Source of the DNA: Christensenellaceae bacterium
GTDB taxonomy: Bacteria; Bacillota; Clostridia; Christensenellales; CAG-138
Direction of reading: 5' to 3'
NCBI GenBank assembly: GCA_963674535.1
Contig: OY771363.1
Coordinates: forward strand, 348,719-412,718
Length of the DNA: 64,000 nucleotides
A program made the position numbers and the translations under genes. Positions 16,664 to 53,808 of this stretch are shown here, piece after piece (the first letter of the stretch is position 1; the number at the start of each line of letters is the position of its first letter). A model generated the notes under the pieces. The model made no database searches. It saw nothing but the letters and a program-made list of their open reading frames with translations, and was not told the origin of the DNA.

Positions 16664-16705
16664 GCAAACGCATTTTGGACGTTTGACCAGAAAAAACGCT
16701 TGCAC

Positions 16706-16734: not shown

Positions 16735-16751
16735 AGCAGTAAGAGGGATGA

Positions 16752-16784: not shown

Positions 16785-16811
16785 AAAATAACGAAAGGAC
16801 GTGGCGGACTG

Positions 16812-17716: not shown

Positions 17717-17747
17717 ACACCTTCTTATAGAAAGATTACAAAACCGG

Positions 17748-18698: not shown

Positions 18699-18724
18699 CG
18701 CTCTCTGGAAATAAAGGAGAATAC

Positions 18725-19159: not shown

Positions 19160-19187
19160 CGGGAAAGTGCCAAAAAAGCACATAGGT

Positions 19188-19210
19188 GCGGGCGAGGCCC
19201 GCTTTTTTTT
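19188..19210 (+). terminator. Intrinsic terminator
   Basis: GCGGGC-gag-GCCCGC followed by TTTTTTTT. Confidence 0.8.
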
Positions 19211-19284
19211 CACAGAATAAAAATTTTTGAGGAAAGGTGAAAAATACCGTTGTTTTTTCAAAAGAATAATGGTAGGATGAACGC

Positions 19285-20310
19285 ATGAAGCTGATCGATA
19301 CGAAAGACGCCGTGGGGCACATTCTCTGCCACGACCTCACGCGCATCGTTCCCGGCGAGATGAAGGACGCGCAGTTCCGCAAAGGCCACGTTGTGACCGA
19401 AGCGGATATTCCCATGCTGCTCTCGATGGGCAAGGATCACCTTTACGTTTGGGAAGTGGACGAAAACACCCTCCACGAAAACGAAGCCGCCGATCGGCTG
19501 GCTGCGCTCTGCGAAAGCGCGCATATGCGCCGCGGCGACGTTAAGGAAGGTAAAATCGAACTGTTTGCCACCGAGGACGGCGTGTTTCAGGTGGATGTTG
19601 CCCGGCTGGACGCGCTCAACGTGCTCGAGGACGTGATGGTCGCCACGCGGCATACCAACACGGCGGTCAAAGCGGGGGACAAGCTCTGCGGCACGCGGGT
19701 GATCCCGCTCGTGATCGACAAGCGCCGTCTCGAAGAAGCCGAAGCGCTGGTTGGAAGTGAGCCGCTCTTAAAGCTCACCCCGTTCCGCAAAGGGCTGAAA
19801 GCGGGCATTGTCACAACCGGCAGCGAAGTGTTTTACGGGCGCATTGAGGACAAGTTTACCCCCGTTGTCGAGCGGAAGCTCGCGGCGTTTGGCGTAACGG
19901 TTGCGGAAAAGCGCCTTTCGGACGACCAGAGCGCAAACATCGTTGCCGCCATTGACAGCGTCCGCAAAGCGGGCGTGGATATCGTACTCTGCACGGGCGG
20001 CATGAGCGTCGATCCGGACGACCGCACGCCGGGCGCCATTCGCGAAAGCGGCGCGAACATCGTCACCTACGGCGCACCGGTTCTGCCGGGGGCCATGTTT
20101 TTACTGGGCTACTACAACGACGGCATCCCGGTCATGGGTTTACCCGGCTGCGTGATGTACGCCAAAGCCTCCATTTTTGATATCGTGCTGCCGAGAATCG
20201 TCGCGGGAATCCGCTTGCAGCGGAGCGACTTGACCCGGCTCGGCAACGGCGGACTCTGCCTTAACTGCGCGGTCTGCACTTACCCCAACTGCGGCTACGG
20301 CAAGGAATAA
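19285..20310 (+). CDS. Molybdopterin-binding (MoCF-biosynthesis / MoeA-like) domain protein with a Cys-rich C-terminus
   Basis: GIVTTGSEVFYGRIEDKF...VDIVLCTGGMSVDPDDRTP...GAPVLPGAMFLLGY is a MoaB/MogA/MoeA-type MPT-binding fold. The C-terminal tail is GGLCLNCAVCTYPNCGYG. Confidence 0.75.
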   Translation: MKLIDTKDAVGHILCHDLTRIVPGEMKDAQFRKGHVVTEADIPMLLSMGKDHLYVWEVDENTLHENEAADRLAALCESAHMRRGDVKEGKIELFATEDGVFQVDVARLDALNVLEDVMVATRHTNTAVKAGDKLCGTRVIPLVIDKRRLEEAEALVGSEPLLKLTPFRKGLKAGIVTTGSEVFYGRIEDKFTPVVERKLAAFGVTVAEKRLSDDQSANIVAAIDSVRKAGVDIVLCTGGMSVDPDDRTPGAIRESGANIVTYGAPVLPGAMFLLGYYNDGIPVMGLPGCVMYAKASIFDIVLPRIVAGIRLQRSDLTRLGNGGLCLNCAVCTYPNCGYGKE

Positions 20311-20435
20311 TACGCAAACAGAACGAACAGACAGCCTCCCGTTGCCGGTAAACTGGATGGAACCCGCAAAGCAGTCGATAGCTTTGCGTTCCAAATAGAA
20401 AAGTGAAGCAAACAACAGGAGGAAAAGGTACCCTT

Positions 20436-21356
20436 ATGAAGAAACTCATCGCATTGCTGATGACGGTGTTACTGATTCTTTCGTTTGCCGCATGTGCGCA
20501 AACGACCGAACCCGCGGCCACGGAAGCGCCCGCCGCGACCGAAGAAGCCATTGCCACGGAAGCGCCCGCAGTGGAAGAACCCGCAGCCACCGCGGCTCCG
20601 CTGGAAGCGGCAGAAGTGCAGCTCTTTATCGCGGCAAGCCTCGAAGGCGCGTTCAAGGAGATCATCCCGCTCTATAGCGCAGCGCAGCCGAACGTTACCA
20701 TTACCTACAACGCGGACAGCTCCGGCAAGCTGCTGACCCAGGTGAAGGAAGGCTTTGCCTGCGACGTATTTTTCTCGGCCGCGACCTCGCAGGTCAAGAC
20801 GTTGGACGAAGAAGGCTTTATGATTCCCGGCACGCGCGTAGACCTGCTCTGCAACAAGCTCGTGCTCGTTACCCTCAAGGGCAGCGGCACGGCGGTAACC
20901 GGCTTTGCGGATCTCGCAAACGCCAAGAGCATCGCTCTTGCGGACGGCAGCGTCCCCGCGGGCAAGTACGCGCGTCAGGTGCTGATTAACCTCGGCATCC
21001 TCGACGGCAGCAAGGCCGCCGCGGACTACACCACGGCGGAAGTTTCCGCAGCCCTCGGCGGCGTGGAAATCAACGAGTGCAGCAGCGTCAGCAAGGTTAA
21101 GGAGGCCGTCAAGGAAGGCTCCAACGAAGTCGGTCTCGTGTATTATTCGGACGCGTATTCGATCAAGGACGATGTGGATATCCTTGAAACGGCGGACTCT
21201 ACGCTGACGGGCAATATCATCTACCCGGTCTGCCGCGTGAACAACGCTGAAGCGACGGCCGCCGAGACGGCCGCCGCGGACGACTTTGTCGCGTTCCTGC
21301 AGACGGATGCGGTCAAGGCGATCTTCGAAAAATTCATGTTCGTCATTTACGAATAA
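20436..21356 (+). CDS. modA: Molybdate ABC transporter substrate-binding lipoprotein
   Basis: MKKLIALLMTVLLILSFAAC lipobox, then LFIAASLEGAF..., DVFFSAA and ALADGSVPAGKYARQ. RBS AGGAGGAAAAGG. Confidence 0.9.
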   Translation: MKKLIALLMTVLLILSFAACAQTTEPAATEAPAATEEAIATEAPAVEEPAATAAPLEAAEVQLFIAASLEGAFKEIIPLYSAAQPNVTITYNADSSGKLLTQVKEGFACDVFFSAATSQVKTLDEEGFMIPGTRVDLLCNKLVLVTLKGSGTAVTGFADLANAKSIALADGSVPAGKYARQVLINLGILDGSKAAADYTTAEVSAALGGVEINECSSVSKVKEAVKEGSNEVGLVYYSDAYSIKDDVDILETADSTLTGNIIYPVCRVNNAEATAAETAAADDFVAFLQTDAVKAIFEKFMFVIYE

Positions 21357-21412
21357 GCGACCCTCCGCAACGTTCGTAATGTAAGGCGCGCCGCTTTCAG
21401 CGGTTCGCCGGG

Positions 21413-21449
21413 TGCCCGCCGTCATGCGGTTTGGCGGCGGGCATTTTTT
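21413..21449 (+). terminator. Intrinsic terminator/attenuator between modA and modB
   Basis: TGCCCGCCG-loop-CGGCGGGCA followed by TTTTTT. Confidence 0.7.
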
Positions 21450-21544
21450 CTTTCATCTGCGGATTGCCGCCGTGTGAAAAGGCGTCCGGTCTTGGCGCAA
21501 AATATGGTATGATGAAGCATCGGTAAGCCCCGAAGGAGCAAGCC

Positions 21545-22249
21545 ATGGATCAACTGCTCGACATCTTAAAATCGCTGGACTACAGCCCGCTCTGGATCTC
21601 GCTCAAAACGGGCGTGGTCGCAACGGTGCTGTGCTTTTTTCTGGGCATCTGGGCGGCGCGGGGCGTCATGCATATGGGAAAGCGCGCCAAAGCCGTCGTG
21701 GACGGGCTCTTGACGCTGCCCATGGTGCTGCCGCCGACGGTTGCGGGCTTCTTTCTCTTGCTCATCTTCAGTTTGCGCCGTCCGGTCGGCACGTTTCTTT
21801 ACGCGACGTTTTCCATCAAGGTTGTGCAAAGTTGGCTTGGCTGCATCCTTGCCGCGAGCGTGATTGCGCTGCCGCTGATGTACCGCAACGCGCGCGCCGC
21901 GTTCGAGCAGGTGGATATTGAGCTCATCTACGCCGCGCGGACGCTCGGCATGTCCGAACGAAAGATCTTCTGGCGCGTGGCGCTGCCTTCCGCGGGGCCG
22001 GGCGTGGTCAGCGGAACGATACTGACGTTTGCGCGCGCCCTTGGCGAATACGGCGCCACCAGCATGCTGGCGGGCAACATCGCGGGCAAAACGGGAACGA
22101 TCTCCCAGCGTATCGCCATGGTGATTCAAAACGGCGACTATCTCACCGCGGGCGTTTGGGTCGTGGTGATCCTGATCATTTCGTTTGCCATCGTCGCGGC
22201 GATGAACCTGTTTGCGGACGCGAAGCTCAAGAACGTTAAGAAATGGTAG
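21545..22249 (+). CDS. modB: Molybdate ABC transporter permease
   Basis: PLWISLKTG...LPMVLPPTVAGFFLL...EQVD.ELIYAARTLG.SE..IFWRV.LP...PG. Confidence 0.95.
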   Translation: MDQLLDILKSLDYSPLWISLKTGVVATVLCFFLGIWAARGVMHMGKRAKAVVDGLLTLPMVLPPTVAGFFLLLIFSLRRPVGTFLYATFSIKVVQSWLGCILAASVIALPLMYRNARAAFEQVDIELIYAARTLGMSERKIFWRVALPSAGPGVVSGTILTFARALGEYGATSMLAGNIAGKTGTISQRIAMVIQNGDYLTAGVWVVVILIISFAIVAAMNLFADAKLKNVKKW

Positions 22250-22294
22250 ACTAAAACCAAAGCAAAACATTGATTAAGAGGAACAATCCACCCG

Positions 22295-23350
22295 ATGGCA
22301 CTGGAAGTATCGATTCTGAAAAAACTGGAAGGCTTTACGCTGGACGTGTCGTTTACCGCCGAACCGGGCGTAACGGCGCTGCTCGGCGCTTCCGGCAGCG
22401 GCAAAAGCATGACGCTTAGGTGCATCGCGGGTGTGGAAAAGCCGGACGCGGGGAGAATCGCCCTCGACGGCAGGGTATTATACGATTCATCTCGAAAGAT
22501 CGACCTGCCGCCGCAAACCCGGCGCGTGGGATATCTGTTTCAGCGGTACGCGCTGTTTCCCAACATGACGGTGTTGCAGAATATTGAAGCGGGACTTTCG
22601 CTGGAGCATGAAAAAGCGGTTCGGCATCAGAAGCGCGAGAGTCTGATTCACCGCTTCCACCTCGAAGGGTTGGAGCGCCGCTACCCGCGCGAGCTTTCCG
22701 GCGGGCAGATGCAGCGCGTTGCGCTCTGCCGCATGCTCGCGGGCGAGCCGGAGGCGATTTTACTGGACGAGCCGTTCGCCGCGCTGGACAGTTTTTTGCG
22801 CTGGCAGCTGGAACGCGAGGTAAAGAATACGCTTGCTGAGTTTAGCGGCGTATCTCTTCTCGTTTCCCACGACCGGGGCGAGGTCTACCGCATGAGCGAG
22901 CGCGTTTGCGTGCTCGGCGGCGGAAAGAGCGAACAGGTCACCAGCACGCGCGCGCTCTTTGAGCACCCGCGCACCGTGCAGAGCGCGCTGATCTCCGGCT
23001 GCAAGAACGTCTCGAGCGCCGAGATGGCGGGGGATGAAACGGTCTTTGTGCCGGACTGGAACGCGCAACTGGCCTGCGAACCCGCCGAAGGCCGAAAGGT
23101 GACGCACGCGGGGATTCGCGCGCACTACATTTTGCCTTGCGAAAACGACGTGGAAAACGCGCTGTTCTGCCGCGTGGAAGACGCCGCGGAGGACGTGTTT
23201 TCCTGCGTACTGACCCTGCGCCCCCAAGGCGCGGCGGGGACGCTCCGCGTGGAGCTGGCAAAGGAAACGGCAAAACCGTTCCCCGTCGGCGCGGAAGCAT
23301 TTTTCGCGCTCCCCAAATCGGCAGTCATGCTGCTTTCGGAGAGAGAGTAA
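22295..23350 (+). CDS. modC: Molybdate ABC transporter ATP-binding protein with a C-terminal TOBE-like domain
   Basis: Walker A GASGSGKSMT, signature LSGGQMQRVAL, Walker B ILLDEP, and an extra C-terminal ~120 aa. Confidence 0.9.
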   Translation: MALEVSILKKLEGFTLDVSFTAEPGVTALLGASGSGKSMTLRCIAGVEKPDAGRIALDGRVLYDSSRKIDLPPQTRRVGYLFQRYALFPNMTVLQNIEAGLSLEHEKAVRHQKRESLIHRFHLEGLERRYPRELSGGQMQRVALCRMLAGEPEAILLDEPFAALDSFLRWQLEREVKNTLAEFSGVSLLVSHDRGEVYRMSERVCVLGGGKSEQVTSTRALFEHPRTVQSALISGCKNVSSAEMAGDETVFVPDWNAQLACEPAEGRKVTHAGIRAHYILPCENDVENALFCRVEDAAEDVFSCVLTLRPQGAAGTLRVELAKETAKPFPVGAEAFFALPKSAVMLLSERE

Positions 23351-23362
23351 CTTCTTTTTCTT

Positions 23363-23477
23363 GGGGACTCCGTCCCCACTCCCCTGCTCAGGGGCAAGCC
23401 CTGAGAACCCCATCGTAACGTAGGGTTTCCAAAGGGACGAATGTCCCTTTGGCGGGAGTTCGAGGGTGGAACCCTCG
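23363..23477 (+). repeat. GC-rich modular hairpin repeat, family 1, copy B
   Basis: GGGGACtccGTCCCC, CTCAGGGgcaagCCCTGAG, CCAAAGGGACgaatGTCCCTTTGG and CGAGGGtggaaCCCTCG, starting directly after the modC stop. Confidence 0.6.
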
Positions 23478-23514
23478 GTAAAAAACTTAAAATTATTCTC
23501 CGGGAGGAAGAGCT

Positions 23515-24015
23515 ATGTTTAAGGCGTCCGTTATTACGGTAAGTGACAAAGGCTATGCGGGCGAACGCGAGGATACCGCAGGCCCGCTGGCAGCCAGTAT
23601 GCTCCGCGAAGCGGGGTACGACGTTCTGACCATCTCCATTGTGCCGGACGAGCGGCCGCTCATCGAGGCGGAACTGCGCCGCCATGCCGACGAGCTGGGC
23701 GCGGCGCTGATCCTCACCACGGGCGGTACTGGCTTTTCCAAGCGCGACGTTACGCCGGAGGCGACCATTGCGGTCTGCGAGCGGCTCGTACCGGGCATAC
23801 CGGAAGCGATGCGCGCCTACTGCCTGCCCATTACGAACCGCGCCATGCTCTCCAGAGCTGCGGCAGGTCTCTACCGCGAAACGCTGATTGTCAACCTGCC
23901 GGGCAGTCCCAAGGCGGTCAAGGAAAACCTGGCTCCCGTATTGCCTGCGCTGGAGCACGGGCTATGCATGTTGCTGGGCACAAAGAACGAATGCGCCAGC
24001 GAACCGAGAAAGTAA
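23515..24015 (+). CDS. mog: MogA/MoaB-family molybdopterin adenylyltransferase
   Basis: ASVITVSDKGYAGEREDTAGP...LILTTGGTGFSKRDVTPEAT...PG.PEAMR...LIVNLPGSPKA. Confidence 0.9.
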   Translation: MFKASVITVSDKGYAGEREDTAGPLAASMLREAGYDVLTISIVPDERPLIEAELRRHADELGAALILTTGGTGFSKRDVTPEATIAVCERLVPGIPEAMRAYCLPITNRAMLSRAAAGLYRETLIVNLPGSPKAVKENLAPVLPALEHGLCMLLGTKNECASEPRK

Positions 24016-26880: not shown

Positions 26881-28875
26881 CTATCTTACCTTCAATCCGC
26901 TGTCCATGGGGGCAAGGGTGGTCAGAGCGGAAAGATTCTCGTCCGCTTCGTCCGAAGCACAGAGAATCATACCCCGGCTTTCCACGCCGCAGAGCGTCGC
27001 GGGTTTGAGGTTGGCAACGAGCACCACGGTTTTGCCGATCATATCGTCGGGCGTGTACCACTTTTTAATGCCGGAAACCACCGTCCGCTCCTCGCCGCCC
27101 ACGTCCAGCGTGAGCTTGAGCAGTTTCTTGCTCTTGGGCAGTTCCTCGCAGGCTACCACCTTGGCGAGCCGCAGATCGACCTTGGCAAAATCGTCGTACT
27201 CAATCTGCGCCGGGGGTTCGCTCGCTCCGTGTGCGCCTTTTTTGGCGGGTTCGGCGGGCTTTTCCGGCTGCGCGGAGGGTGCTGCTGCGGCCTTTGCCTG
27301 CGCTGTGCGCTCGGCCAGGTACGTGAGCTCCTTTTCCACGTCGATGCGCGGGAAGATCGCTTCTCCCTTACTGACCCTTGCGCCGGGGATGCTTCCGCCC
27401 CAGGCGACAGCGCCGAACTCCGCTTCTTTGCCGGAAACGCCGAGCTGATCGAACATCTTGTTCGGCGTTGCGGTCAAGTACGGAATCAGCAGTACGCCCA
27501 CGATACGCAGGCTCTCCGCGAGGTTGTACAGAACGGTCTTGAGTCGCTCTTTTCCTTCTTCCGTCTTGGCCAGTGTCCAGGGGGCGGTGACGTCGATGTA
27601 TTTGTTGCAGGCGCCGACGAGCTTCCAAATTTCGGCCAGCGCGTCGGGAATGTGTAAATCGGTCATCTGCGCGTCCACGCGGGCGGGCAAGTCCTTTGCC
27701 AGCGCAATCAGCGCCGCATCCTCGTCGGCAGTAACGCCCGGCGCGGGCAGTACGCCGCCGAAGTATTTGTCGATCATGGCGACCGTGCGGCTCAAGAGGT
27801 TACCGAGGTCGTTTGCAAGGTCCGTGTTGATGCGGGCAATCAGCGCTTCGTTCGTGAAGTTGCCGTCAGAGCCGAACGGCACTTCACGCAAGAGGAAATA
27901 GCGGATGGCGTCCACACCGTAGCGTTCGCAGAGCGCGACGGGATCGACCACGTTGCCCTTGCTTTTACTCATCTTGCCGCCGTCGAGTACGAGCCAGCCA
28001 TGGCCGAACACCTGCTTGGGCAGCGGCTCGCCGAGCGCCATGAGCATGATCGGCCAGATGATGGTATGGAAGCGCACGATCTCCTTGCCGACGATGTGCA
28101 CGTCCGCCGGCCAGAACTTTTTATAGAGAGAATCGTCGTCGCTGCCCCAGCCGAGGGCGGTGATGTAGTTGGAAAGCGCGTCCAGCCAGACGTAGACCAC
28201 GTGGTTTTCGTCGAAATCGACGGGGATTCCCCATTTAAAGCTTGTGCGGCTCACGCAGAGGTCCTCAAGACCCGGCAAAAGGAAGTTCTGCAGCATCTCG
28301 TTGGTGCGGCTCACGGGCTGGATGAACGTGGGGTTGTCCTTGATGTACTGAATCAGCCGGTCGGCGTATTTCGAGAGGCGGAAGAAGTAGCTTTCCTCCT
28401 CCACGAGTTCCACGGGGCCGCCGCAGTCCGGGCAGACGCCGCCCGCTTCCTCAATCTGGCGGTCGAGCCAAAAGCTCTCGCAAGGCGTGCAGTAATGGCC
28501 GGTGTACTTCGATTTATAGATATCGCCCTGATCGTAGAGCTTTTTGAACATCTTCTGCACGGCTTTGACGTGGTAATCGTCGGTCGTGCGGATGAACTTG
28601 TCGTAGGAGATGTCCAAGAGGCTCCAAAGACTCTTAAACCCGTCGACGATTTTGTCCACATACTGCTGCGGGGTTACGCCTTCCGCCTTGGCTTTACGCT
28701 CAATCTTCTGGCCGTGCTCGTCCGAACCGGTCAGAAAGAACACGTCGTAGCTGCGCTGGCGTTTGTAGCGGGCAATGGCGTCGGTCGCCACGGTGCAGTA
28801 GGCGTGCCCAATGTGCAGGTTCGCGCTCGGGTAATAGATCGGGGTTGTGATGTAAAACGTCTTTCTTTCATCCAT
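26881..28875 (-). CDS. metG: Methionine--tRNA ligase with a C-terminal tRNA-binding (EMAP/Trbp111-like) domain
   Basis: FYITTPIYYPSANLHIGHAY (HIGH), KMSKSKGN (KMSKS), a Zn knuckle CTPCESFW...CPDCGG, and C-terminal VDLRLAKVVACEELPKSKKLLKLTLDVG. Start MDERK after GGAGGA. Confidence 0.95.
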   Translation of the reverse strand: MDERKTFYITTPIYYPSANLHIGHAYCTVATDAIARYKRQRSYDVFFLTGSDEHGQKIERKAKAEGVTPQQYVDKIVDGFKSLWSLLDISYDKFIRTTDDYHVKAVQKMFKKLYDQGDIYKSKYTGHYCTPCESFWLDRQIEEAGGVCPDCGGPVELVEEESYFFRLSKYADRLIQYIKDNPTFIQPVSRTNEMLQNFLLPGLEDLCVSRTSFKWGIPVDFDENHVVYVWLDALSNYITALGWGSDDDSLYKKFWPADVHIVGKEIVRFHTIIWPIMLMALGEPLPKQVFGHGWLVLDGGKMSKSKGNVVDPVALCERYGVDAIRYFLLREVPFGSDGNFTNEALIARINTDLANDLGNLLSRTVAMIDKYFGGVLPAPGVTADEDAALIALAKDLPARVDAQMTDLHIPDALAEIWKLVGACNKYIDVTAPWTLAKTEEGKERLKTVLYNLAESLRIVGVLLIPYLTATPNKMFDQLGVSGKEAEFGAVAWGGSIPGARVSKGEAIFPRIDVEKELTYLAERTAQAKAAAAPSAQPEKPAEPAKKGAHGASEPPAQIEYDDFAKVDLRLAKVVACEELPKSKKLLKLTLDVGGEERTVVSGIKKWYTPDDMIGKTVVLVANLKPATLCGVESRGMILCASDEADENLSALTTLAPMDSGLKVR

Positions 28876-28899
28876 AACAGCATCCTCCAACAAAATCAA

Positions 28900-29205
28900 A
28901 CTAAACTAAAAACGCGTGCCGCCCTCGTGTAAGGACGGCACGCGCAAAGAAAGCGTACCGGATAACCACCTTACTTCCCTGAAACGGGGCATAAGTTCCC
29001 GCTGTATCGGTCGGGTTCCGCTGCGGTTCAGGCAAATGAAGCGTTCACCGTCAGGAGCTCGGGAGCCATGTTCAGCCAAACTGCGCCGCCGGGCTTTCAC
29101 CTCTTCCCGGCTCTCTATGCAGGCGCGCGCGCGGCTTACTCTTTCCGTCGTCGCTCGTATGAGCTATACCGGTCGTGCGGGCGGTTAGCCCTTGTTGCCG
29201 ATATA
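28900..29205 (-). promoter_or_regulatory. T-box riboswitch leader (Met specifier) of metG
   Basis: Minus strand: GCGACGACGGAAAGAGUAAGCC (GA / S-turn side), AGAGAG bulge, distal loop AAGAGGUGAAAG, specifier loop GAACAUGG (AUG = complement of 29067..29069) and T-box AAGGUGGUUAUCCGGUAC (28955..28970). The terminator GCGTGCCGTCC-loop-GGGCGGCACGC plus TTTTT lies at 28908..28945. Confidence 0.85.
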
Positions 29206-36239: not shown

Positions 36240-37763
36240 ATGATAGAGATCAACGGCGGCGGGCTGACGCTTGAACAGGTGGCAAGAATTGCGCGCTCGT
36301 TCGAACCCGCCCGTATTTCCCCTTCCGCAATGGCGGCAATTGAACGTTCCCGCGCGATTGTAGACGAAAAAAGACGATCCGGCGCGGTGGTTTACGGCGT
36401 GACTACCGGCTTTGGCAAGTTTGCCGAAAAGCGCATTGCGGATGGGGACACCGAGCAGCTTCAGCGCAACCTCATCGTAAGCCACGCCTGCGGAACGGGT
36501 GACCCGCTGCCGACGGACGCGGTGCGCGCTTCCATGCTCCTGCGGCTTAACGCGCTTTCCAGCGGGTACTCCGGCATCCGGCTTTCCACAATGGAAACGC
36601 TGCTTGCCATGCTGAATCTCGGCGTGCATCCCGTCATACCCGAAAAAGGCAGTTTGGGCGCAAGCGGAGATCTCGTTCCGTTGGCGCATATGGTGCTGCC
36701 GATGATCGGCGAGGGCAAAGCGGAATACAAGGGCGAAACGCTTCCCGGCGCGGAAGCGATGCGCCGCGCGGGGCTGGAACCGATCCGGCTTGCGGCCAAG
36801 GAAGGGCTCGCGCTCATCAACGGTACGCAGATTATGACCGCCATCGGCGCGCTGGCAGTGTACGACGCGCTGCAGTTACTGAAAACGGCGGATATCGTTT
36901 CCGCACTGACCTGCGAAGCGCAAACCTGCATCACCGGCGCGTTCGACGAGCGGGTGCACCGCCTGCGCGCGCATCCCGGGCAGGTTGCCTGCGCGGAAAA
37001 TCTGCGCAAACTGCTTTCTGGCAGCGGGCTATCCAAAGAAGCGGTCGAAGGCAAGGTGCAGGACGCATACTCCATCCGCTGTATTCCACAGATTCACGGC
37101 GCAAGCCGGGACGCGATTTTTTACGCGCGGGACGCGGTGACCCGCGAGATCAATTCGGTGACCGACAACCCCCTGATCTTTCCGGACGGGGACGACGTGC
37201 TCTCCGGCGGAAACTTCCACGGCCAGCCCATGGCGCTGGCGTTCGATTTTCTTGCCATCGCGCTCGCCGAACTGGCGAACGTTTCCGAGCGACGCACAGA
37301 GCGGCTGGTTAATCCCTACCTCAACAACAGCTTGCCCGCGTTTCTCGCCCCGAACGGCGGGCTGAACTCCGGGTTTATGATCGCTCAGTACGCGGCGGCG
37401 GCGCTGGTTTCCGAAAACAAGATCCTCGCGCATCCTGCCAGTGTGGACTCCATTCCGTCGTCCGCCAATCAGGAGGATCATGTGAGCATGGGCACCATTG
37501 CCGCGCGAAAGGCGGCGGAGATACTGCACAATGCCGAACGCGTGCTTGCCATCGAGCTTTTCGCAGCGGGGCAGGCGCTCTCCATGCTCGGCGCGGAACG
37601 GCTCGCGCCCGCGACCCGCGCGGTCTACGACGTTCTACGAAAAGAAGTGCCGTTTGTGGAGCACGATGTGGTGATGTACGAGCAGATTGTCAAGTGCGAA
37701 CGGCTTGTGCGCTCGCAGGAGGTTGTTGCTGCCGCCGAAAGCGTCTGCGGCGCGCTGAATTGA
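36240..37763 (+). CDS. hutH: Histidine ammonia-lyase
   Basis: MIO-forming GSLGASGDLVPLAH, plus YGVTTGFGKF, NLIVSHACG and SANQEDHVSMG. Confidence 0.95.
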   Translation: MIEINGGGLTLEQVARIARSFEPARISPSAMAAIERSRAIVDEKRRSGAVVYGVTTGFGKFAEKRIADGDTEQLQRNLIVSHACGTGDPLPTDAVRASMLLRLNALSSGYSGIRLSTMETLLAMLNLGVHPVIPEKGSLGASGDLVPLAHMVLPMIGEGKAEYKGETLPGAEAMRRAGLEPIRLAAKEGLALINGTQIMTAIGALAVYDALQLLKTADIVSALTCEAQTCITGAFDERVHRLRAHPGQVACAENLRKLLSGSGLSKEAVEGKVQDAYSIRCIPQIHGASRDAIFYARDAVTREINSVTDNPLIFPDGDDVLSGGNFHGQPMALAFDFLAIALAELANVSERRTERLVNPYLNNSLPAFLAPNGGLNSGFMIAQYAAAALVSENKILAHPASVDSIPSSANQEDHVSMGTIAARKAAEILHNAERVLAIELFAAGQALSMLGAERLAPATRAVYDVLRKEVPFVEHDVVMYEQIVKCERLVRSQEVVAAAESVCGALN

Positions 37764-37787
37764 TGAAAGCTACGGAGGCGGTTGAAT

Positions 37788-39797
37788 ATGAGCGCAGAAT
37801 ATAAAACGCGAACAATTGAAATTTCACTGCCGGACGAACTGCCGCAACTGCCCGCGTTCGAGCCGAACATTCGCCGTGCGCCGGACCGCGGGTACCGCTT
37901 GACCCCCGCGCAGACGCGGCAGGCGCTCAAAAATGCGCTGCGGTACGTGCCGGAACCTCTCCATGAAACGCTTGCGCCGGAGTTTTTGGAAGAGTTGAAA
38001 ACGCGCGGCCGCATCTACGCCTACCGCTACCGCCCCGAGGGGCGCATCTACGGCAAGCCCATCGACGAATACAAGGGCAAGTGCCTCGCGGGCAAGGCGT
38101 TTCAGGTGATGATCGACAACAACCTTGATTTTCAGGTTGCGCTCTACCCGTATGAACTCGTGACCTACGGCGAAACCGGCCAGCCCTGCCAGAACTGGCT
38201 GCAGTATCGCCTGATCAAGCGATATCTCGAAGAACTGACCGAAGAACAGACGCTGGTGCTCGAATCCGGCCATCCGCTGGGGCTGTTCCCGAGCAGGCCG
38301 AGCGCCCCGCGCGTGATTCTGACCAACGCGCTGATGGTCGGCATGTTTGATAATCCCGACGACTGGGAGATTGCCGAGCAGATGGGCGTTGCCAACTACG
38401 GGCAGATGACGGCGGGCGGCTGGATGTACATCGGCCCGCAGGGTATCGTACACGGCACGTTCAACACGATTCTCGGCGTGGGCAGAAAGTATCTCGGCGT
38501 GCCTTCGGACGGGGATTTGACCGGCAAGATATTCGTCAGCTCCGGCCTCGGCGGCATGAGCGGCGCGCAGCCTAAAGCCGCGAACATCGCCCGCGCGGTG
38601 GGGGTGTTTGCGGAAGTCGACCGCTCCCGCATTCAAACACGGCTCGATCAGGGCTGGGTGGAGACGGTTTCGGACGATTTGGACGAGGTGTTTTCGCTCG
38701 CGCTCGCGGCAAAACACGCGCATAGGAGCGTTTCCATTGCCTATCACGGCAACATCGTGGATTTGCTGGAAGCCGCCATTGCGCGAGACTTCCCAATTGA
38801 CCTGCTCAGCGACCAGACCTCCTGCCACAACGCCTACAACGGCGGGTACTGCCCCGTGGGGCTGACGTTTGGCGAACGGACGGAACTGCTGCACCGCGAC
38901 CGCGAGGCGTTTCATTCGCTCGTGGATGCGTCGCTCAAGCGTCACATCGCGGCCATACGCATATTGACCGAACGGGGAACTCGCTTTTTCGACTACGGCA
39001 ATTCGTTTCTTAAGGCGGTGTTCGATGCGGGCGAAACCTGGATTGCGAAGAACGGCGTCGACACAAAAGACGGGTTCGTGTTTCCTTCCTATGTGGAGGA
39101 TATCATGGGGCCGCTGCTCTTCGACTACGGCTACGGACCGTTCCGCTGGGTTTGTCTAAGCGGGAGACACGAGGATTTGGTCAAAACCGACCGCGCTGCG
39201 ATGGACTGCATCGACCCCGACCGCTGCTGGCAGGATCGCGACAACTATGTTTGGATTCGGGACGCGGAGCAAAACCGGCTCGTGGTCGGCACCGAAGCGC
39301 GGATACTGTATCAGGATGAGGAGGGGCGGCGGCGGATTGCCCTGCGCTTCAACGAACTGGTGCGCTCCGGCGAAATCGGCCCCGTGATGCTGGGGCGCGA
39401 CCATCACGACGTTTCCGGTACGGACTCGCCCTTTCGGGAGACCGCGAACATCCGCGACGGCAGCAACGTGATGGCGGATATGGCGACCCAGTGCTTTGCG
39501 GGTAACGCCGCGCGCGGCATGACGCTCTGCGCGCTCCATAACGGCGGCGGCGTGGGCGTCGGCAAGGCGATCAACGGCGGGTTCGGGCTCTTGCTGGATG
39601 GCAGTGCGCGCGTGGACGAAATCATCGAAAGCGCGATTTCCTGGGACGTGATGGGCGGCGTCGCCCGGCGCGGCTGGGCAGGAAACGAGCATGCGCTCGA
39701 GACCGCCGCGCGGTATAATGATCGGGAAGGCGCTCGCGCGCACATCACGCTCCCGCACCTTGCGAGCGAAGAACTTTTGAATAAGATACTGGATTAA
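37788..39797 (+). CDS. hutU: Urocanate hydratase (long ~670-aa form)
   Basis: YELVTYGETGQ, GGWMYIGPQGIVHGT, SSGLGGMSGAQPKA and RDHHDVSGTDSPFRETANI. ATG at 37788 lies 9 nt after GGAGG. Confidence 0.95.
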   Translation: MSAEYKTRTIEISLPDELPQLPAFEPNIRRAPDRGYRLTPAQTRQALKNALRYVPEPLHETLAPEFLEELKTRGRIYAYRYRPEGRIYGKPIDEYKGKCLAGKAFQVMIDNNLDFQVALYPYELVTYGETGQPCQNWLQYRLIKRYLEELTEEQTLVLESGHPLGLFPSRPSAPRVILTNALMVGMFDNPDDWEIAEQMGVANYGQMTAGGWMYIGPQGIVHGTFNTILGVGRKYLGVPSDGDLTGKIFVSSGLGGMSGAQPKAANIARAVGVFAEVDRSRIQTRLDQGWVETVSDDLDEVFSLALAAKHAHRSVSIAYHGNIVDLLEAAIARDFPIDLLSDQTSCHNAYNGGYCPVGLTFGERTELLHRDREAFHSLVDASLKRHIAAIRILTERGTRFFDYGNSFLKAVFDAGETWIAKNGVDTKDGFVFPSYVEDIMGPLLFDYGYGPFRWVCLSGRHEDLVKTDRAAMDCIDPDRCWQDRDNYVWIRDAEQNRLVVGTEARILYQDEEGRRRIALRFNELVRSGEIGPVMLGRDHHDVSGTDSPFRETANIRDGSNVMADMATQCFAGNAARGMTLCALHNGGGVGVGKAINGGFGLLLDGSARVDEIIESAISWDVMGGVARRGWAGNEHALETAARYNDREGARAHITLPHLASEELLNKILD

Positions 39798-39926
39798 TTT
39801 TCTTTCTCTTAACAGAGAAAGAAACAAAGAGAATTAATTTCTCTGTTTCTCTCTTTTGAAAGAGAGAAGAAAAAGATAAGAATTTTCTCTGCTTCTCTCT
39901 TTTTTAAAAGAGAGAAGAGAAAAGAA
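39798..39926. repeat. AT-rich polypyrimidine/polypurine hairpin repeat, family 2 (three tandem ~45-nt units)
   Basis: TTTCTTTCTCTtaacAGAGAAAGAAA-CAAAGA; TTTCTCTGTTTCTCTCTTTtgaaAGAGAGAAGAAAAAGA; TTTTCTCTGCTTCTCTCTTTTttaaAAGAGAGAAGAGAAAAGAAA. Each is preceded by GAATT(A)A. Together they fill the hutU-ftcD intergenic gap. Confidence 0.6.
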
Positions 39927-39934
39927 AGGTTTTT

Positions 39935-40825
39935 ATGGCACAGATTATTGAGTGCGTACCCAACATCAGTTCCGCCGACACCGCGCTGGTTGCCGAAGCC
40001 GCGAGTGTCATCCGCAGCACCCCGGGAGTAACGCTATTGGATACTTCCAGCGACCAAAGCCACAACCGTTCGGTCATCACGTTTGTGGGCGACGCGGCGG
40101 GCGCGGAGGAAGCGGCGGTCAAGCTCGCCAAATTTGCGGCGGAGCACATCGACTTAACGAAGCATAAGGGCGAACACCCCCGCATGGGCGCGGTGGACGT
40201 CGTGCCGTTTATCCCCATTCGCGAGGCGAGCATGAGCGAGTGCATCGCGCTTTCCAAGCGCGCGGCGGAACGCATCTGGAAGGAAGCGGGCATCCCCGTA
40301 TTCCTCTACGAAGCGTCGGCTTCCGCGCCGAACCGCGAAAACCTCGCGAGCATCCGCAAAGGCCAGTTCGAGGGCATGGCGGAAAAAATACGGCAGCCGG
40401 AATGGGAACCCGACTTCGGCGGGCGCACCGTGCACCCGACGGCAGGGGTCGTCGCGGTTGGCGCGCGCGCGCCGCTGATCGCGTTCAACATCAACCTGAG
40501 CACGTCCGATGTAGCGATTGCGGACAAAATCGCCCGCGTCGTGCGGTTTTCCGGCGGGGGACTGAGCTGCGTCAAAGCCATCGGCGTGCTGCTCAAAGAG
40601 CGCAGCGTCGCGCAGGTTTCGATCAACATGACGAACTACTGCTCGACGCCGCTCTACCGCGTGCTTGAATTCGTCCGCTTTGAAGCGGCGCGGTACGGAG
40701 TGAGCGTCATCGGTACGGAGGTCGTGGGGTTGCTGCCCATGCGCTCGCTGATCGACAGCGCGGAGTATTACCTCGGCATCGAGAACTTCGATGCGGAAAA
40801 ACAGGTGCTGGAGTACCGGCTGTAG
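39935..40825 (+). CDS. ftcD: Glutamate formimidoyltransferase
   Basis: MAQIIECVPNISS..., HNRSVITFVG, HPRMGAVDVVPFIP and a GARAPLIAFNINL pattern. Confidence 0.9.
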   Translation: MAQIIECVPNISSADTALVAEAASVIRSTPGVTLLDTSSDQSHNRSVITFVGDAAGAEEAAVKLAKFAAEHIDLTKHKGEHPRMGAVDVVPFIPIREASMSECIALSKRAAERIWKEAGIPVFLYEASASAPNRENLASIRKGQFEGMAEKIRQPEWEPDFGGRTVHPTAGVVAVGARAPLIAFNINLSTSDVAIADKIARVVRFSGGGLSCVKAIGVLLKERSVAQVSINMTNYCSTPLYRVLEFVRFEAARYGVSVIGTEVVGLLPMRSLIDSAEYYLGIENFDAEKQVLEYRL

Positions 40826-40852
40826 CCGATATTATCGGGTGGAGGACGCGCC

Positions 40853-42082
40853 GTGCTGCTGATTCAAAACATAGGGCTTTTGCAAACGCCGCTCGGCACA
40901 ACGAGCCGAAGAGGTCGAGAACAAGGCGAAAACCGCAAGTATAGAAACGCCAGCGTATTGCTCGACGGCGGCGTGATTCGTGCGGTCGCGGAAAACGGCG
41001 CGGTTCCCGCCTGCCCGGACGATACGGAAGTTCTGGACGCGGAGGGCCGTTTCTGCACGCCCGGCTGGGTGGATGCGCATACCCACCTCGTGTTCGGCGG
41101 CTGGCGGCAGCACGAGATTCCGCTCAAATTGAAAGGCGCAAGCTATCTGGAGATCCTCCAGTCCGGCGGCGGCATCCTCGACACCGTGCGCCAGACGCGC
41201 GCGCTCGGCGAGGACGCGCTGTTTGAACGCGCGAAAGGGTTCGCCAGCGAACAGCTTGCGCTCGGCGTAACGGCAACCGAGGCTAAAAGCGGCTACGGGC
41301 TGGATTTGGAGAACGAACTGAAACAGCTTCGCGTTCTAGCGCGGCTCAAAAACGAAGCGGGGTTTGACGTTGTGCCGACCTTTATGGGCGCGCACGCCGT
41401 GCCGCCGGAGTTTGCGGGAAATCCGGACGCGTATGTCGAGTTTCTCTGCGCGGACGTCCTTCCGCGCGTGGCAAGCGAACGTCTGGCCAGATATTGCGAC
41501 GTATTCTGTGAAACGGGCGTGTTTTCGGTTCAACAGAGCAGGCGGGTTCTCAAAACGGCAAAACAGCTCGGTTTAGGGCTGAAAATCCATGCCGACGAGA
41601 TCGACTCCCTCGGCGGGGCGGAACTCGCGGGGGAACTCGGCGCGGTTTCGGCGGAGCACCTGATCGCAACCTCGGACGCGGGTATCTCCGCGCTGGCAAA
41701 CGGCAACGTCACGGCCTGCCTGCTGCCGGGAACATCCCTCTACCTCGATAAACCGTTCGCGCGGGCGCGGGCGATGATCGAGCGGGGCGTTGCGGTGGCG
41801 GTCGCTTCGGACTTTAACCCCGGGTCGTGTCCTTCGCTCCACCTGCAGCTCTGCGCGAACCTCGCCTATCTCAAATATCGCATGACGCCGGAGGAAGTGC
41901 TCACTGCGCTGACGCTCAACGCCGCCTGCGCAATCGGCCTCGGCCAGACGCACGGCTCGATCGAACCCGGCAAGCGGGCTGACCTCGTGCTTTGGAACGC
42001 GGACGGCATGGAACTGCTCTGCTACCGCATGGGAAGCAATCAGGCCGGGATCGTGGTCAAGAAAGGGACGGTCGTACAATAA
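40853..42082 (+). CDS. hutI: Imidazolonepropionase
   Basis: PGWVDAHTHLVFGG.R..E, SGGGI, EAKSGYGL, KIHADE and ASDFNPGS. GTG start after GGAGGA. Confidence 0.95.
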   Translation: MLLIQNIGLLQTPLGTTSRRGREQGENRKYRNASVLLDGGVIRAVAENGAVPACPDDTEVLDAEGRFCTPGWVDAHTHLVFGGWRQHEIPLKLKGASYLEILQSGGGILDTVRQTRALGEDALFERAKGFASEQLALGVTATEAKSGYGLDLENELKQLRVLARLKNEAGFDVVPTFMGAHAVPPEFAGNPDAYVEFLCADVLPRVASERLARYCDVFCETGVFSVQQSRRVLKTAKQLGLGLKIHADEIDSLGGAELAGELGAVSAEHLIATSDAGISALANGNVTACLLPGTSLYLDKPFARARAMIERGVAVAVASDFNPGSCPSLHLQLCANLAYLKYRMTPEEVLTALTLNAACAIGLGQTHGSIEPGKRADLVLWNADGMELLCYRMGSNQAGIVVKKGTVVQ

Positions 42083-50963: not shown

Positions 50964-51851
50964 ATGGATATGAAGCAGATCAGCCCGGAAACGCGCAGGC
51001 GTCTGGAGGACTTCCAGCGGGACGAAATCACCGGCAGTGTGCTTTACGCAAAGATCGCCCGGCGGCAGAAGGACGAAAACAACAAGCGCGCCTTTGAGGA
51101 GATTTCCAAAGCCGAGCGGAGCCATTACGAAATCTGGAAGGGCTATACCGGGCGGGAGATCACGCCGAACGGATTCCGCGTTGGCGCTTTTGCGCTGATG
51201 AGCCGGATTCTGGGCATTACGTTTACGCTGAAGCTCTTTGAAAAGTTCGAGGAAGCAGGCATACGCGAGCTGGAAGCGGTCGAACAGGAGTTCCCGGAGG
51301 TGCGCGCCATCATCGCCGAGGAGGAAGCGCACGAATCCCGCCTGATGGAGATGGTGGACGAGGAGCGCCTGCACTATGTTGGCGCAATCGTGCTGGGGCT
51401 CAACGACGCGCTCGTGGAGCTAACGGGCACCATAGCAGGGTTGACGTTCGCGCTGGCGAGCAACCGCCTTGTGGCGCTCTCCGGCATTATTACCGGCGTC
51501 TCCGCAACGCTCTCCATGGCGGCTTCCAACTACCTTTCCCAGCGCGCGGAGGGGAACCCCAAAGCGCTCAAGTCCAGCGCGTACACGGGAGTTGCTTACC
51601 TGCTGACGGTCATTCTGATCGTGCTGCCGTATCTGCTGCTGCCGAACGACTGGTATATCGCGGCGTTCGCCATCATGATTGCGGGCGTGATTCTCGTTAT
51701 CCTGTCGTTCAACTACTATATCTCCGTGGCGCAAGGCACGTCGTTTTGGAAGCGGTTCGGCGAAATGATGCTCATCAGCATGGGTGTTGCTGCGCTTTCG
51801 TTCGGCATCGGCCTTGCGGCAAAGGCGCTGCTTGGCATCAACGTTGGCTGA
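50964..51851 (+). CDS. VIT1/CCC1-family iron/manganese transporter with an N-terminal ferritin/rubrerythrin-like domain
   Basis: N-terminal E..G...Y......E......F.EIS.AE..H helices. Then GAIVLGLNDALVELTGTIAGL and C-terminal TM helices typical of the VIT family. Confidence 0.85.
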   Translation: MDMKQISPETRRRLEDFQRDEITGSVLYAKIARRQKDENNKRAFEEISKAERSHYEIWKGYTGREITPNGFRVGAFALMSRILGITFTLKLFEKFEEAGIRELEAVEQEFPEVRAIIAEEEAHESRLMEMVDEERLHYVGAIVLGLNDALVELTGTIAGLTFALASNRLVALSGIITGVSATLSMAASNYLSQRAEGNPKALKSSAYTGVAYLLTVILIVLPYLLLPNDWYIAAFAIMIAGVILVILSFNYYISVAQGTSFWKRFGEMMLISMGVAALSFGIGLAAKALLGINVG

Positions 51852-51864
51852 TTTGGTTCGAGTC

Positions 51865-51895
51865 AAAAAGCCCGCGAATTGCTCGCGGGCTTTTT
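51865..51895. terminator. Bidirectional terminator between the VIT gene (+) and the lyase gene (-)
   Basis: AAAAAGCCCGCGA-attgc-TCGCGGGCTTTTT. Confidence 0.8.
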
Positions 51896-51916: not shown

Positions 51917-53365
51917 TTACAGGCTGTCGCCGAAATCGGCGCGGAATTTGGCAACGAGCCGATCCTGCCAGTCCCCGATGGGCTCCAGCCGGCCGAAGAA
52001 GAAGCGGAGCGTTGCGGGCTCTTCCACAAAGTTCAGGCCGCCAACGATCTTGCGGTTATCGAACAGCCAACTGATGCGGTCTACCGCGTAGAGCACCTGA
52101 CTCATGGTAAACACGCGGCGGGGGAGGGCGAGGCGCAGCAGTTCCATGCTCGCAATCGGCTCCGTGCCGTCCGGTTCGCGCTGCTCGGAGAGGGTGCCGC
52201 GCTCCATGCCGCGAACGCCACCAGAGATATAGACCGCCGAAGCGAGCGCCGCCGCGGGGTAGGCGTGCGCGTCCACATGGTCGAGGAACTTCCGCGCGTT
52301 GATATGGCAGCCGAGGCCGCCCGCCGGGGTGACCACCGGTACGCCGCGCTTTTTGAGCTCGCGCGCCATGAATTCGATGAACTGCGGCCCCTGGGAGATG
52401 ACGTCCTCGTCCATCGTCTCTTCCAGGCCGACGGTCATGGCTTCCATCTCGCGCACGCTCATGCCGCCGTAGGTCAAAAAGCCTTCGAACATCGGGATGT
52501 AATCCTTCATGCGCTCGTAGTAGGTTTGGTTGAACATTGCCATGCCGCCGCCGCGCGCAAAGCCGAGCTTGCGGGCGGAGAAGTAGATGATGTCCGCCTG
52601 CGCGCACATTTCGCTTGTGATGGCGCGGATGCTCATGTCCTTGCAGGCTGCTTCGCGCGTTTTAATGAAGTAGAGGTTGTCCTGCAGGAGGCTCGCGTCC
52701 AGCACGATCGGGATGCCGAACGAATGCGCCAGAGCGGCGGTCGCCTTGAGGTTTTCCAGCGAAAACGGCTGGCCGCCGATGAGGTTCGTTCCCGCTTCCA
52801 GACGGATGAACGGAATATGCTCCGCGCCGTTGCGGGCGATGCAATCCTTGAGCTTGGCGAGATCAATGTTGCCCTTGAACGGAAAATCGCTTTCGGGGTT
52901 CAGCCCCTCGTCGATGACGAGCTCCTCCACGCTGCCGCCCTTGCGCGTGATATGCGCCTTGCTGGTGGTGAAGTGGAAGTTCATGGGCACGACGTCGCCG
53001 GGCTTTACGAACGCTTCGGCAAGGATGCTCTCGCAGGCGCGCCCCTGGTGAGCGGGTAAAAAGAACTTGGTGCCGAAGAGCTCGTGAATCTTGCTCTCGA
53101 GCCGGTAGAAGGTTGCGCTGCCGGCGTAGCTGTCGTCTGCAATCATCATGCTCGCGGTCTGCTGGTCGCTCATGGCGTTGACGCCGCTGTCGGTGAGCAT
53201 ATCCAAAAAGACGTCCTGATTGCGCAGCAGAAACGTGTTGTTGCCCGCGGCGGCCATCGCCTTGGCGCGCTCTTCGATGGGCAGCAGGGTCAGCTTTTGA
53301 ACCACGCGCACCTTGTGCATCTCAAGAGGGATTTGTTCACCTGAAAACATGGATACTTTGGTCAT
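51917..53365 (-). CDS. Beta-eliminating lyase, tryptophanase / tyrosine phenol-lyase family (PLP-dependent)
   Basis: NTFLLRNQDVFLDMLTDSGVNAMSDQQ, HQGRACE and YFSARK (PLP-Lys region), with a length typical of TnaA/TPL. RBS GGAGGAG. Substrate specificity cannot be assigned by eye. Confidence 0.9.
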   Translation of the reverse strand: MTKVSMFSGEQIPLEMHKVRVVQKLTLLPIEERAKAMAAAGNNTFLLRNQDVFLDMLTDSGVNAMSDQQTASMMIADDSYAGSATFYRLESKIHELFGTKFFLPAHQGRACESILAEAFVKPGDVVPMNFHFTTSKAHITRKGGSVEELVIDEGLNPESDFPFKGNIDLAKLKDCIARNGAEHIPFIRLEAGTNLIGGQPFSLENLKATAALAHSFGIPIVLDASLLQDNLYFIKTREAACKDMSIRAITSEMCAQADIIYFSARKLGFARGGGMAMFNQTYYERMKDYIPMFEGFLTYGGMSVREMEAMTVGLEETMDEDVISQGPQFIEFMARELKKRGVPVVTPAGGLGCHINARKFLDHVDAHAYPAAALASAVYISGGVRGMERGTLSEQREPDGTEPIASMELLRLALPRRVFTMSQVLYAVDRISWLFDNRKIVGGLNFVEEPATLRFFFGRLEPIGDWQDRLVAKFRADFGDSL

Positions 53366-53773
53366 TGTTGTTCTCCTCCAAGCGCTTTGCTTTTTTCATA
53401 AAAAAACACCCTCCGGCCGTCTGGCTGAAGGGTGTTCTGTTCGGTAAAAAAAGAACCGCCCGCCTTGTTCGGCAAGAGGACGAATTTCTTCGCGGTACCA
53501 CCTCGGTTTGCCGCGCCCTTGCGGGATGCGGCCTCAACGGGTACGGACAGCACTGTTTTGCAAAATCGATACCCTGCCTTTGGTAACGGGGAGGAGCCCC
53601 GTCCGTCCCTACTCGGCATACTTGCGTTTCAGGCGGCGGCTGGTTGCGCGTATTCGCGGGGCGTTCCCTTCTGCCTTGCACCATCCGGCAGCTCTCTGAT
53701 GGGACGTTCTTGGGCCAAGGCCCGTTTTCCCGTTACTTCTTCGCAGTCATAGCCTTTGCTGTGTCCTAAATTA
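53366..53773 (-). promoter_or_regulatory. T-box riboswitch leader (specifier most likely UAC/Tyr) of the lyase gene
   Basis: Minus strand: UGCGAAGAAGUAACGGG, AG bulge AUCAGAGAG, distal loop GGAUGGUGCAAGG, specifier-loop candidate CGAAUACG (UAC = complement of 53650..53652) closed by UGCG/CGCA, and canonical T-box AACCGAGGUGGUACCGCG (complement of 53491..53508). Terminator-like hairpins with U7 lie at 53446..53481 and 53400..53436. Confidence 0.8.
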
Positions 53774-53779
53774 AGCACA

Positions 53780-53808
53780 AGTATACTGGCACTGGAGTGG
53801 CTTGTCAA
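53780..53808 (-). promoter_or_regulatory. Sigma-70-like promoter of the T-box/lyase transcript
   Basis: Minus strand: TTGACA, 17 nt, TATACT. Confidence 0.6.

Follow-up and report, generated by a model that had tools for sequence, protein, structure and literature searches.

A tyrosine-specific T-box leader upstream of a tyrosine phenol-lyase-like gene in Clostridia

In Bacillus subtilis, the tyrS gene is controlled by a T-box leader of the tyrosine class (Rfam family RF00230). A leader of the same kind is present on the minus strand of a 64,000-nucleotide (nt) stretch of a Christensenellaceae genome (contig OY771363.1, positions 348,719 to 412,718; hereafter the window), where it precedes a gene for a pyridoxal phosphate (PLP)-dependent lyase of the family that comprises tryptophanase (TnaA) and tyrosine phenol-lyase (TPL). 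Both leaders carry a UAC specifier in the specifier loop of Stem I, a UGGU in the antiterminator bulge that matches base A73 of the tRNA, and competing antiterminator and terminator structures; the tyrS leader is turned on by uncharged tRNA-Tyr, and the same is predicted for the window leader. Unlike its B. subtilis counterpart, the window leader controls a TPL-like lyase and not a tyrosyl-tRNA synthetase, is GC-rich, scores under the Rfam gathering threshold and, in the clade of the window, is accompanied by a second terminator.

The closest described enzymes are the TPLs of Citrobacter freundii and Erwinia herbicola (TIGR02618; PDB 2ez1 and 1c7g). They belong to the same fold family as the window lyase, align with it over the full length and share the PLP lysine, Y71, R404 and the pocket residues T124, M379, R381, F448 and F449. 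The window lyase is nevertheless only 39% identical to C. freundii TPL, from which it departs by R217L, K256R, E69D, N262R, V283P and a Phe in place of M288. Canonical tpl is induced by tyrosine via TyrR and CRP, whereas the leader predicts that the window gene responds to tyrosine starvation; both the activation of tpl by TyrR with tyrosine and its catabolite (glucose) repression have been described (PMC10170061). The Escherichia coli TnaA system, with its tnaC leader, resembles the window system in enzyme superfamily and in leader-based transcription attenuation 5' of the gene. However, TnaA is induced by excess tryptophan via a stalling leader peptide, and its pocket residues D137, I396 and H463 correspond to T, R and F in the window lyase, with which it shares 33% identity. 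TrpB, which joins indole and serine, and the TrpB-derived tyrosine synthase (PMC13578870) are also PLP enzymes that form an aromatic amino acid from a free ring, as is proposed here for conditions of scarcity. The fold type of TrpB is unrelated to that of the window lyase, and the role of the latter is read from its regulation only.

To our knowledge, a tyrosine synthase that depends on phenol has not been described from nature. The literature searched contained no account of a T-box associated with TPL or tryptophanase, and Wels 2008 does not mention the link; an earlier mention in Vitreschak 2008 or Gutierrez-Preciado 2009 is possible. As an RNA, the leader adds one member to a known family; what is new is that a starvation switch is paired with a distinct TPL-like clade.

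The leader and its specifier

The leader matches RF00230 over the whole model (positions 1-219) at 53759..53473, with 80.1 bits and an E-value of 1.2e-17 in a search of 801 nt, or 9.8e-16 when the whole 64-kb window is searched. It is of the full-length type, with Stem I, Stem II, IIA/B, Stem III and the antiterminator. Stem I (53642..53756, minus strand), as seen in the covariance-model alignment, has GC/GC pairs and a GA (K-turn-like) motif at its base, the loop motif AGUA...GAA, the AG bulge AGAGAG at 53697..53692 and the distal loop GGAUGGUGCAAGG at 53686..53674. The alignment also gives the closing helix UGCG/CGCA at the specifier loop, and places GAAA...AGUA in Stem II, followed by IIA/B and Stem III. 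An original prediction, made from the letters of the window alone, had listed parts of Stem I, among them the AG bulge and the distal loop, and called the leader a T-box; it matches the T-box model, though under the gathering score, and every part listed is present. Other weak Rfam matches in the leader (RsaE, flavivirus CRE and RAGATH-10, with E-values of 0.1-7) were set aside as chance matches to the terminator hairpins.

Related loci were collected by scanning one genome per species. More than 580 stretches matched in species-representative genomes of several phyla, and the clade was found in at least 80 loci; the 80 loci compared here encode proteins 68-98% identical to the window protein. 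Of these, 45 have the T-box core GGUGGUA[AC]C[AG]CG at a distance of 90-230 nt from the start codon, on its 5' side; their labels are Bacillota, Clostridia, Christensenellales or Oscillospiraceae, and none of the loci from other phyla among the 80 has the core. Complete chromosomes that carry the T-box-linked gene include OY764017.1, OY762962.1, OY762290.1, OY776633.1, OW818651.1 and CAXXPJ010000003.1. When nine orthologous leaders were compared with RF00230 they scored 63-112 bits, and four (L066, L040, L053 and L023, with 94-112 bits) exceeded the gathering score. Across 31 distinct orthologous Stem I sequences, RNAalifold found double (compensatory) changes in 14 of 17 Stem I pairs, and the motifs AGAGA and GGUGCAAGG are conserved among the orthologous leaders.

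The specifier UAC occupies 53652..53650 on the minus strand. It is preceded by GAA (53655..53653) and followed by a purine, G (53649), and then by the helix strand CGCA (53648..53645). This is the triplet that the original prediction had proposed, and the covariance model sets it on specifier positions 91-93 in the window as well as in the four orthologous alignments shown. The proposal holds equally in the wider comparison: GAAUAC is invariant in 44 of the 45 orthologous leaders, the exception being L049, an AT-rich leader that fails to align. A purine (A or G) follows in 43 of the 44 and C in the remaining one, and the helices on either side covary while GAAUAC stays fixed. This fixed GAA-UAC-R between covarying helices of Stem I assigns the specifier to tyrosine. 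The unpaired 3' strand has the composition seen in characterised leaders, namely GAA, three nucleotides and a purine. Similarly, the rule used in TBDB, in which nucleotides 2-4 of the specifier bulge, counted from its 3' end, form the specifier (PMC7778990), yields UAC when applied to this leader.

The specifier might instead be read one base later, as ACG, ACA or ACC, in which case the leader would sense tRNA-Thr. The base after UAC does vary as a wobble position would, ACN always stands for threonine, and the metS leader of the window (see below) has one extra base between GAA and the codon. Moreover, A73 is the discriminator base of bacterial tRNA-Tyr and probably also of tRNA-Thr, so that the UGGU of the bulge would pair with either. 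The argument that had been drawn from this UGGU consequently stands in part: it excludes tRNA-Trp (G73), but probably not tRNA-Thr. No tRNA-Tyr or tRNA-Thr gene is present in the window or in 54 related loci. The threonine register, which the original prediction had considered less likely, is nonetheless very improbable, with the loop geometry and the enzyme, rather than the discriminator, arguing against it. The model and the TBDB default rule (PMC7778990) both select UAC, and the U of this triplet is invariant in the 44 leaders. The base that follows it in 43 of 44 leaders agrees with the conserved purine 3' of a specifier, whereas ACN would have a paired C as its next base. In L019 and L066, which have an extra A and read GAAAUACA, UAC is separated from GAA by a spacer of 1 nt, as in the Rfam consensus, whereas ACA would need an unusual one of 2 nt. 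Finally, the controlled enzyme has a tyrosine pocket.

T-box regulation is also used elsewhere in this organism. A second T-box is located at 28928..29160 (minus strand; RF00230, 47.7 bits, E-value 2.3e-7), 5' of metS (26881..28899, minus strand), which encodes methionyl-tRNA synthetase; its specifier loop reads GAA-C-AUG-G, and it too is far under the Rfam gathering score. A default Rfam scan of the whole window at the gathering threshold returned no T-box. The GC-rich T-boxes of this organism are thus overlooked by default scans because their scores fall under that threshold.

Antitermination and the second hairpin

A sigma-70-type promoter lies upstream of the leader at 53780..53808 (minus strand), with TTGACA at 53808..53803, a 17-nt spacer and TATACT at 53785..53780. 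Its hexamers match the consensus at 11 of 12 positions; a scan found two promoter-like sites of such quality where 1.0 +/- 1.2 were expected, which means that a single site is not above chance. TTGACA/TATAAT-like hexamers occur at the equivalent position in orthologous leaders.

The T-box sequence AACCGAGGUGGUACCGCG at 53508..53491 is, as the original prediction had it, a textbook one. The antiterminator (53476..53508, minus strand) folds as expected when forced, and contains the core motif of the orthologs. It consists of GAGG (53504..53501), the 7-nt bulge UGGUACC (53500..53494), GCGAA-GAAA-UUCGU and CCUC (53479..53476); the part after GAAA reads UUCGUCCUC. The bulge fits UGGNACC, and U53497 would pair with the discriminator A73. 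The T-box terminator at 53446..53483 (minus strand) is formed by UCGUCCUCUUG, the loop CCGAA and CAAGG(C)GGGCGG, followed by the U-tract UUCUUUUUUU. The 5' arm of this hairpin and the 3' strand of the antiterminator overlap, with UUCGUCCUC as the shared segment. Since the two structures share this strand and are mutually exclusive, the arrangement is the standard one for a gene that is on when the tRNA is uncharged. Equivalent terminators, differing in sequence, are found in the orthologs.

In this scheme, transcription would start at the TTGACA/TATACT promoter, and the specifier UAC of Stem I would read the anticodon of tRNA-Tyr. The 3' end of an uncharged tRNA would then pair with the UGGU of the bulge and hold the antiterminator, so that the terminator at 53483..53446 would not form and the gene would be transcribed. 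Charged tRNA-Tyr could not hold the antiterminator, and transcription would stop. The leader is a canonical T-box that works by transcription attenuation, has specificity for tRNA-Tyr (anticodon GUA) and controls one gene, which should be switched on by the uncharged form of this tRNA.

Between the T-box terminator and the ribosome-binding site, a second hairpin resembling an intrinsic terminator is present at 53400..53435 (minus strand). It is composed of ACACCCUUCAGCC, AGAC and GGCCGGAGGGUGU, followed by UUUUUU. The promoter and both U-tract hairpins are present as predicted, as are the ribosome-binding site and the open reading frame described in the next section. Apart from the window, the second-terminator architecture is limited to its nearest relatives, L027 and L001-L005, in which the sequences differ; it marks the seven closest leaders, and the other 38 are without it. 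A relay, in which the freed 3' arm of the first terminator would act as antiterminator of the second, was considered and rejected, since the second hairpin stays intact with the antiterminator forced in the window, L001, L002, L003 and L005. Speculatively, the second terminator may lower the ceiling of expression. Alternatively, it may stabilise the 5' end once the leader has been processed, as has been described for the thrS leader of B. subtilis.

Another feature was noticed in a second group of orthologous leaders. In these 15 (L023, L025, L026, L029, L033, L035, L036, L037, L042, L044, L050, L053, L057, L063 and L076), the apical loop of the antiterminator, AUUUGGCG, is invariant and complementary to a conserved CGCCAAA(G/U) located 3' of the terminator, 60-130 nt before the start codon. 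The latter sits in a hairpin loop, and the 3' arm of this hairpin, GGCUCC, can alternatively pair with the Shine-Dalgarno sequence GGAGCC. Judging from this complementarity, AUUUGGCG and CGCCAAA(G/U) may form a kissing-loop link of antitermination to translation.

The lyase and the distribution of its gene

The controlled gene is a monocistronic open reading frame of 482 codons (51917..53365, minus strand), preceded by the ribosome-binding site GGAGGAG (53373..53379, minus strand), 7 nt 5' of the ATG. Its product belongs to Pfam Beta_elim_lyase, and the only NCBIfam model that it passes is the subfamily model NF009709, 'tryptophanase' (584 bits against a cut-off of 285). The tryptophanase equivalogs both failed, TIGR02617 with 329 against 825.8 bits and NF053783 with 395 against 750 bits. 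Among proteins of solved structure, the best relatives are TPLs (372 bits, E-value 1e-110, full-length), whereas tryptophanases reach at most 323 bits. TPL and TnaA are 42% identical and hence closer to each other than either is to the window protein, which places the clade outside both. In a comparison with 1.84 billion cluster representatives, the family forms one 50%-identity cluster, P0121, with a sister, P0129, at 48% and everything else at 42% or less. By its sequence, the lyase belongs to a third clade of the TnaA/TPL family, which is compact and highly conserved, and is neither a canonical TPL nor a canonical TnaA. The earlier description of a TnaA/TPL-type PLP lyase is therefore right as to family and TPL-type pocket, but the protein stands outside both of the named groups.

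Active-site residues were mapped onto 76 family members, in C. freundii TPL numbering. Y71, R100, F123, N185, D214, K257 (the PLP lysine) and R404 are invariant and common with TPL, and the TPL-type substrate residues T124, M379, R381, F448 and F449 are also invariant. Positions 124, 288, 379, 381 and 448, occupied in TPL by T, M, M, R and F, separate this enzyme from tryptophan indole-lyase (PMC5805759). Four of the five are of the TPL type here (T, M, R and F) and position 288 is Phe, as in indole-lyase; the indole pocket of TnaA is absent. Other changes are unlike both TPL and TnaA: R217L, K256R, E69D, V283P and T216S are invariant in the 76 members, and N262 is replaced by R in 73 and by K in three. 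Six of the eight residues of the core catalytic set of TPL and TnaA are kept, R217 and K256 being the two replaced. E69 and N262 belong to the monovalent-cation site of TPL, and R217 contacts O3' of the cofactor. The SARK and DAS[LM] motifs recur in the sister cluster P0129. Overall, the protein looks like an enzyme that binds tyrosine or phenol and in which the surroundings of the cofactor and of the cation are modified.

The lyase is approximately 26 residues longer than TPL and ends in a conserved C-terminal tail, GDWQ...DFG. This tail is kept in the distant paralogues P0147, P0152 and P0157, in which the PLP lysine is gone (SSSQ, QPGG and GRRP for SARK) and which are, on these motifs, probably non-catalytic relatives. 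In addition, P0122-P0126 and P0131-P0135 are proteins of about 850-930 amino acids in which two TnaA/TPL-like stretches stand in tandem, with 33-38% identity to the window protein.

No identical protein was on record, and the closest relative of the window protein is that of L027 (98% identity; metagenome-assembled genome JBDKTD010000309). Other RNA elements were sought 5' of the gene in lineages that lack the T-box: none was found at the Rfam gathering threshold in 20 loci, and none at E-values up to 0.01 in the nine such loci from Bacillota. As to the control of canonical tpl, the T-box pattern was found in none of 80 metagenome loci at least 81% identical to C. freundii TPL, a weak control that holds few Bacillota. 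The Rfam model likewise found none in the 14 low-GC loci of this set, which is mostly Enterobacteria or Bacteroidetes-like.

Role of the enzyme and genomic context

Since the gene is switched on by a lack of charged tRNA-Tyr, the enzyme would serve tyrosine supply. The argument for a synthetic role is that a starvation switch makes sense only if the product raises this supply. Most likely, the enzyme would condense phenol, pyruvate and ammonium into tyrosine, in the reverse of the TPL reaction; a beta-replacement of serine with phenol is a further possibility. TPL is known to condense phenols, pyruvate and ammonium reversibly, and has been used in this way in living cells (PMC13578870). The phenol would come from an anaerobic protein-rich or plant-rich habitat, and the single-gene unit fits its use because phenol needs no transporter. 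Canonical tpl is controlled in a manner opposite in sign to T-box control, which also points to tyrosine supply from phenol. Phenol-dependent tyrosine formation, by reverse lyase or beta-replacement, is the most likely role and, judged from the regulation, a probable one. The original prediction had taken starvation induction to suggest the synthetic direction or an altered specificity, and this idea is strengthened by the pocket residues, by the clade-specific invariant changes in the active site and by the opposite control of canonical tpl. It may simply be that the enzyme works both ways and that regulation decides which way it is used.

Several findings weigh against this reading. The window leader, with 80.1 bits, does not reach the RF00230 gathering score of 93 bits, a shortfall that goes with GC-rich insertions, no elements being missing. 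The second hairpin folds with or without the antiterminator forced, which leaves part of the leader logic unaccounted for. The lyase fails the TPL equivalog TIGR02618 (430.2 against 720.7 bits), and with R217 and K256 lost its chemistry may differ from that of TPL and TnaA. No characterised member of the clade was found, and its catalytic activity is predicted only. An equally conserved protein is encoded without a T-box in nine Bacillota loci and in many other phyla, the carriers including Thauera aminoaromatica as well as Spirochaetes, Lentisphaerae and Acidobacteriota. Aromatic compounds are degraded by Thauera species, and in these T-box-less lineages tyrosine breakdown by the lyase is at least as plausible.

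Such an ordinary catabolic role, in which TPL would provide pyruvate and ammonia to an amino-acid fermenter and the T-box would report general starvation or be an inherited leader of little meaning, is quite unlikely for the window gene. It would account for the TPL-type pocket and for the many lineages without a T-box, and the histidine-utilisation operon in the window indicates that the organism ferments amino acids. However, tyrosine degradation induced when tRNA-Tyr is uncharged would only deepen the shortage, and the catabolic enzymes studied are induced by tyrosine (PMC10170061). The absence of T-boxes from the 80 canonical TPL loci, weak as this control is, points the same way. Furthermore, the leader persists, and shows compensatory changes, even where protein identity has fallen to approximately 70%, which argues for selection on the switch. 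It is very doubtful that the enzyme acts on a substrate unrelated to tyrosine, such as cysteine or serine derivatives, with only an indirect link to tyrosine. Other beta-eliminating lyases act on such derivatives, the side activities of TnaA and TPL are broad, the protein is under all equivalog cut-offs and R217 and K256 are lost; yet R381 and T124, which bind the phenolic hydroxyl, and F448 are invariant across phyla, and a tyrosine-specific T-box is conserved 5' of the gene.

A narrower form of the synthetic role is that of a dedicated 'tyrosine synthase', which would join phenol to serine, or to a serine or cysteine derivative, by beta-replacement and would have lost the reversible lyase function. 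TPL performs beta-replacement with serine and phenol as a side reaction. The changes R217L, K256R, E69D and N262R/K, found in all 76 members and unlike TPL and TnaA, would mark such a shift; the sister P0129 shares the SARK and DAS[LM] motifs, and the family is a single tight cluster apart from everything else. Nevertheless, the lyase reaction depends on Y71 as general acid and on R404 for binding of the carboxylate, both of which are retained, and the sequence gives no sign as to which of the two reactions is preferred; this form is unlikely, if less so than the catabolic role. Returning to phenol-dependent tyrosine formation in general, a broader proposal is that the clade constitutes a natural phenol-dependent tyrosine-forming enzyme and an unrecognised salvage or biosynthesis route in anaerobes, wired by the T-box to tRNA-Tyr charging in many Clostridia, with R217L, K256R, E69D and N262R adapting the TPL scaffold to synthesis. 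We regard this as tentative, with a little less than an even chance of being correct.

The lyase gene stands alone, with a gene for a zinc-ribbon protein divergent upstream. The hairpin GCCCGCGAGCAAUUCGCGGGC followed by UUUUU at 51865..51890 (minus strand), read from the letters and not listed by an automated terminator scan, is its likely terminator. A VIT1-family gene on the opposite strand (50964..51851) converges on it. No recurrent neighbour of the lyase gene was found: most loci are monocistronic, the few same-strand neighbours are mutually unrelated, and the downstream gene in other loci is usually on the opposite strand. The only possible related operon partner is in L080, from a metagenome-assembled genome labelled Enterobacteriaceae, where a gene of the same strand (4490..5800), which resembles aminotransferases of class I/II, begins 41 nt after the lyase gene. 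In L078 (3149..3667; T. aminoaromatica S2) and L073 (4595..5047; a metagenome-assembled genome labelled Phycisphaerales), a near-identical small secreted protein, which resembles the CreA family, is encoded just 3' of the lyase gene; either mis-binning or a recent transfer is suggested by this near-identity.

The rest of the window contains no aromatic amino-acid genes. It holds a cluster for molybdenum-cofactor biosynthesis with a molybdate ABC transporter (13465..24015, plus strand), metS, pth, mfd and the histidine-utilisation operon (36240..42082, plus strand), which encodes histidine ammonia-lyase, urocanase, formiminotransferase and an amidohydrolase. This gene content fits a member of the amino-acid-fermenting Clostridia.

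T-boxes are reliable reporters of the purpose of a gene, as the genes that they activate serve to increase the supply of one particular charged tRNA. The present case also illustrates that GC-rich T-boxes are overlooked at the default Rfam threshold. A tyrosine T-box conserved 5' of a TPL-like gene is regulatory evidence that a family annotated as 'tryptophanase' and labelled catabolic serves tyrosine supply in many Clostridia of guts and digesters. If this is true, an entire protein family would be due for re-annotation, and enzymology would have a natural scaffold for the synthesis of tyrosine from phenols. Under the same condition, phenol, which is toxic, arises by fermentation and is the precursor of the uraemic toxin phenyl sulfate, would not only be produced in these communities, as some of their members would consume it.

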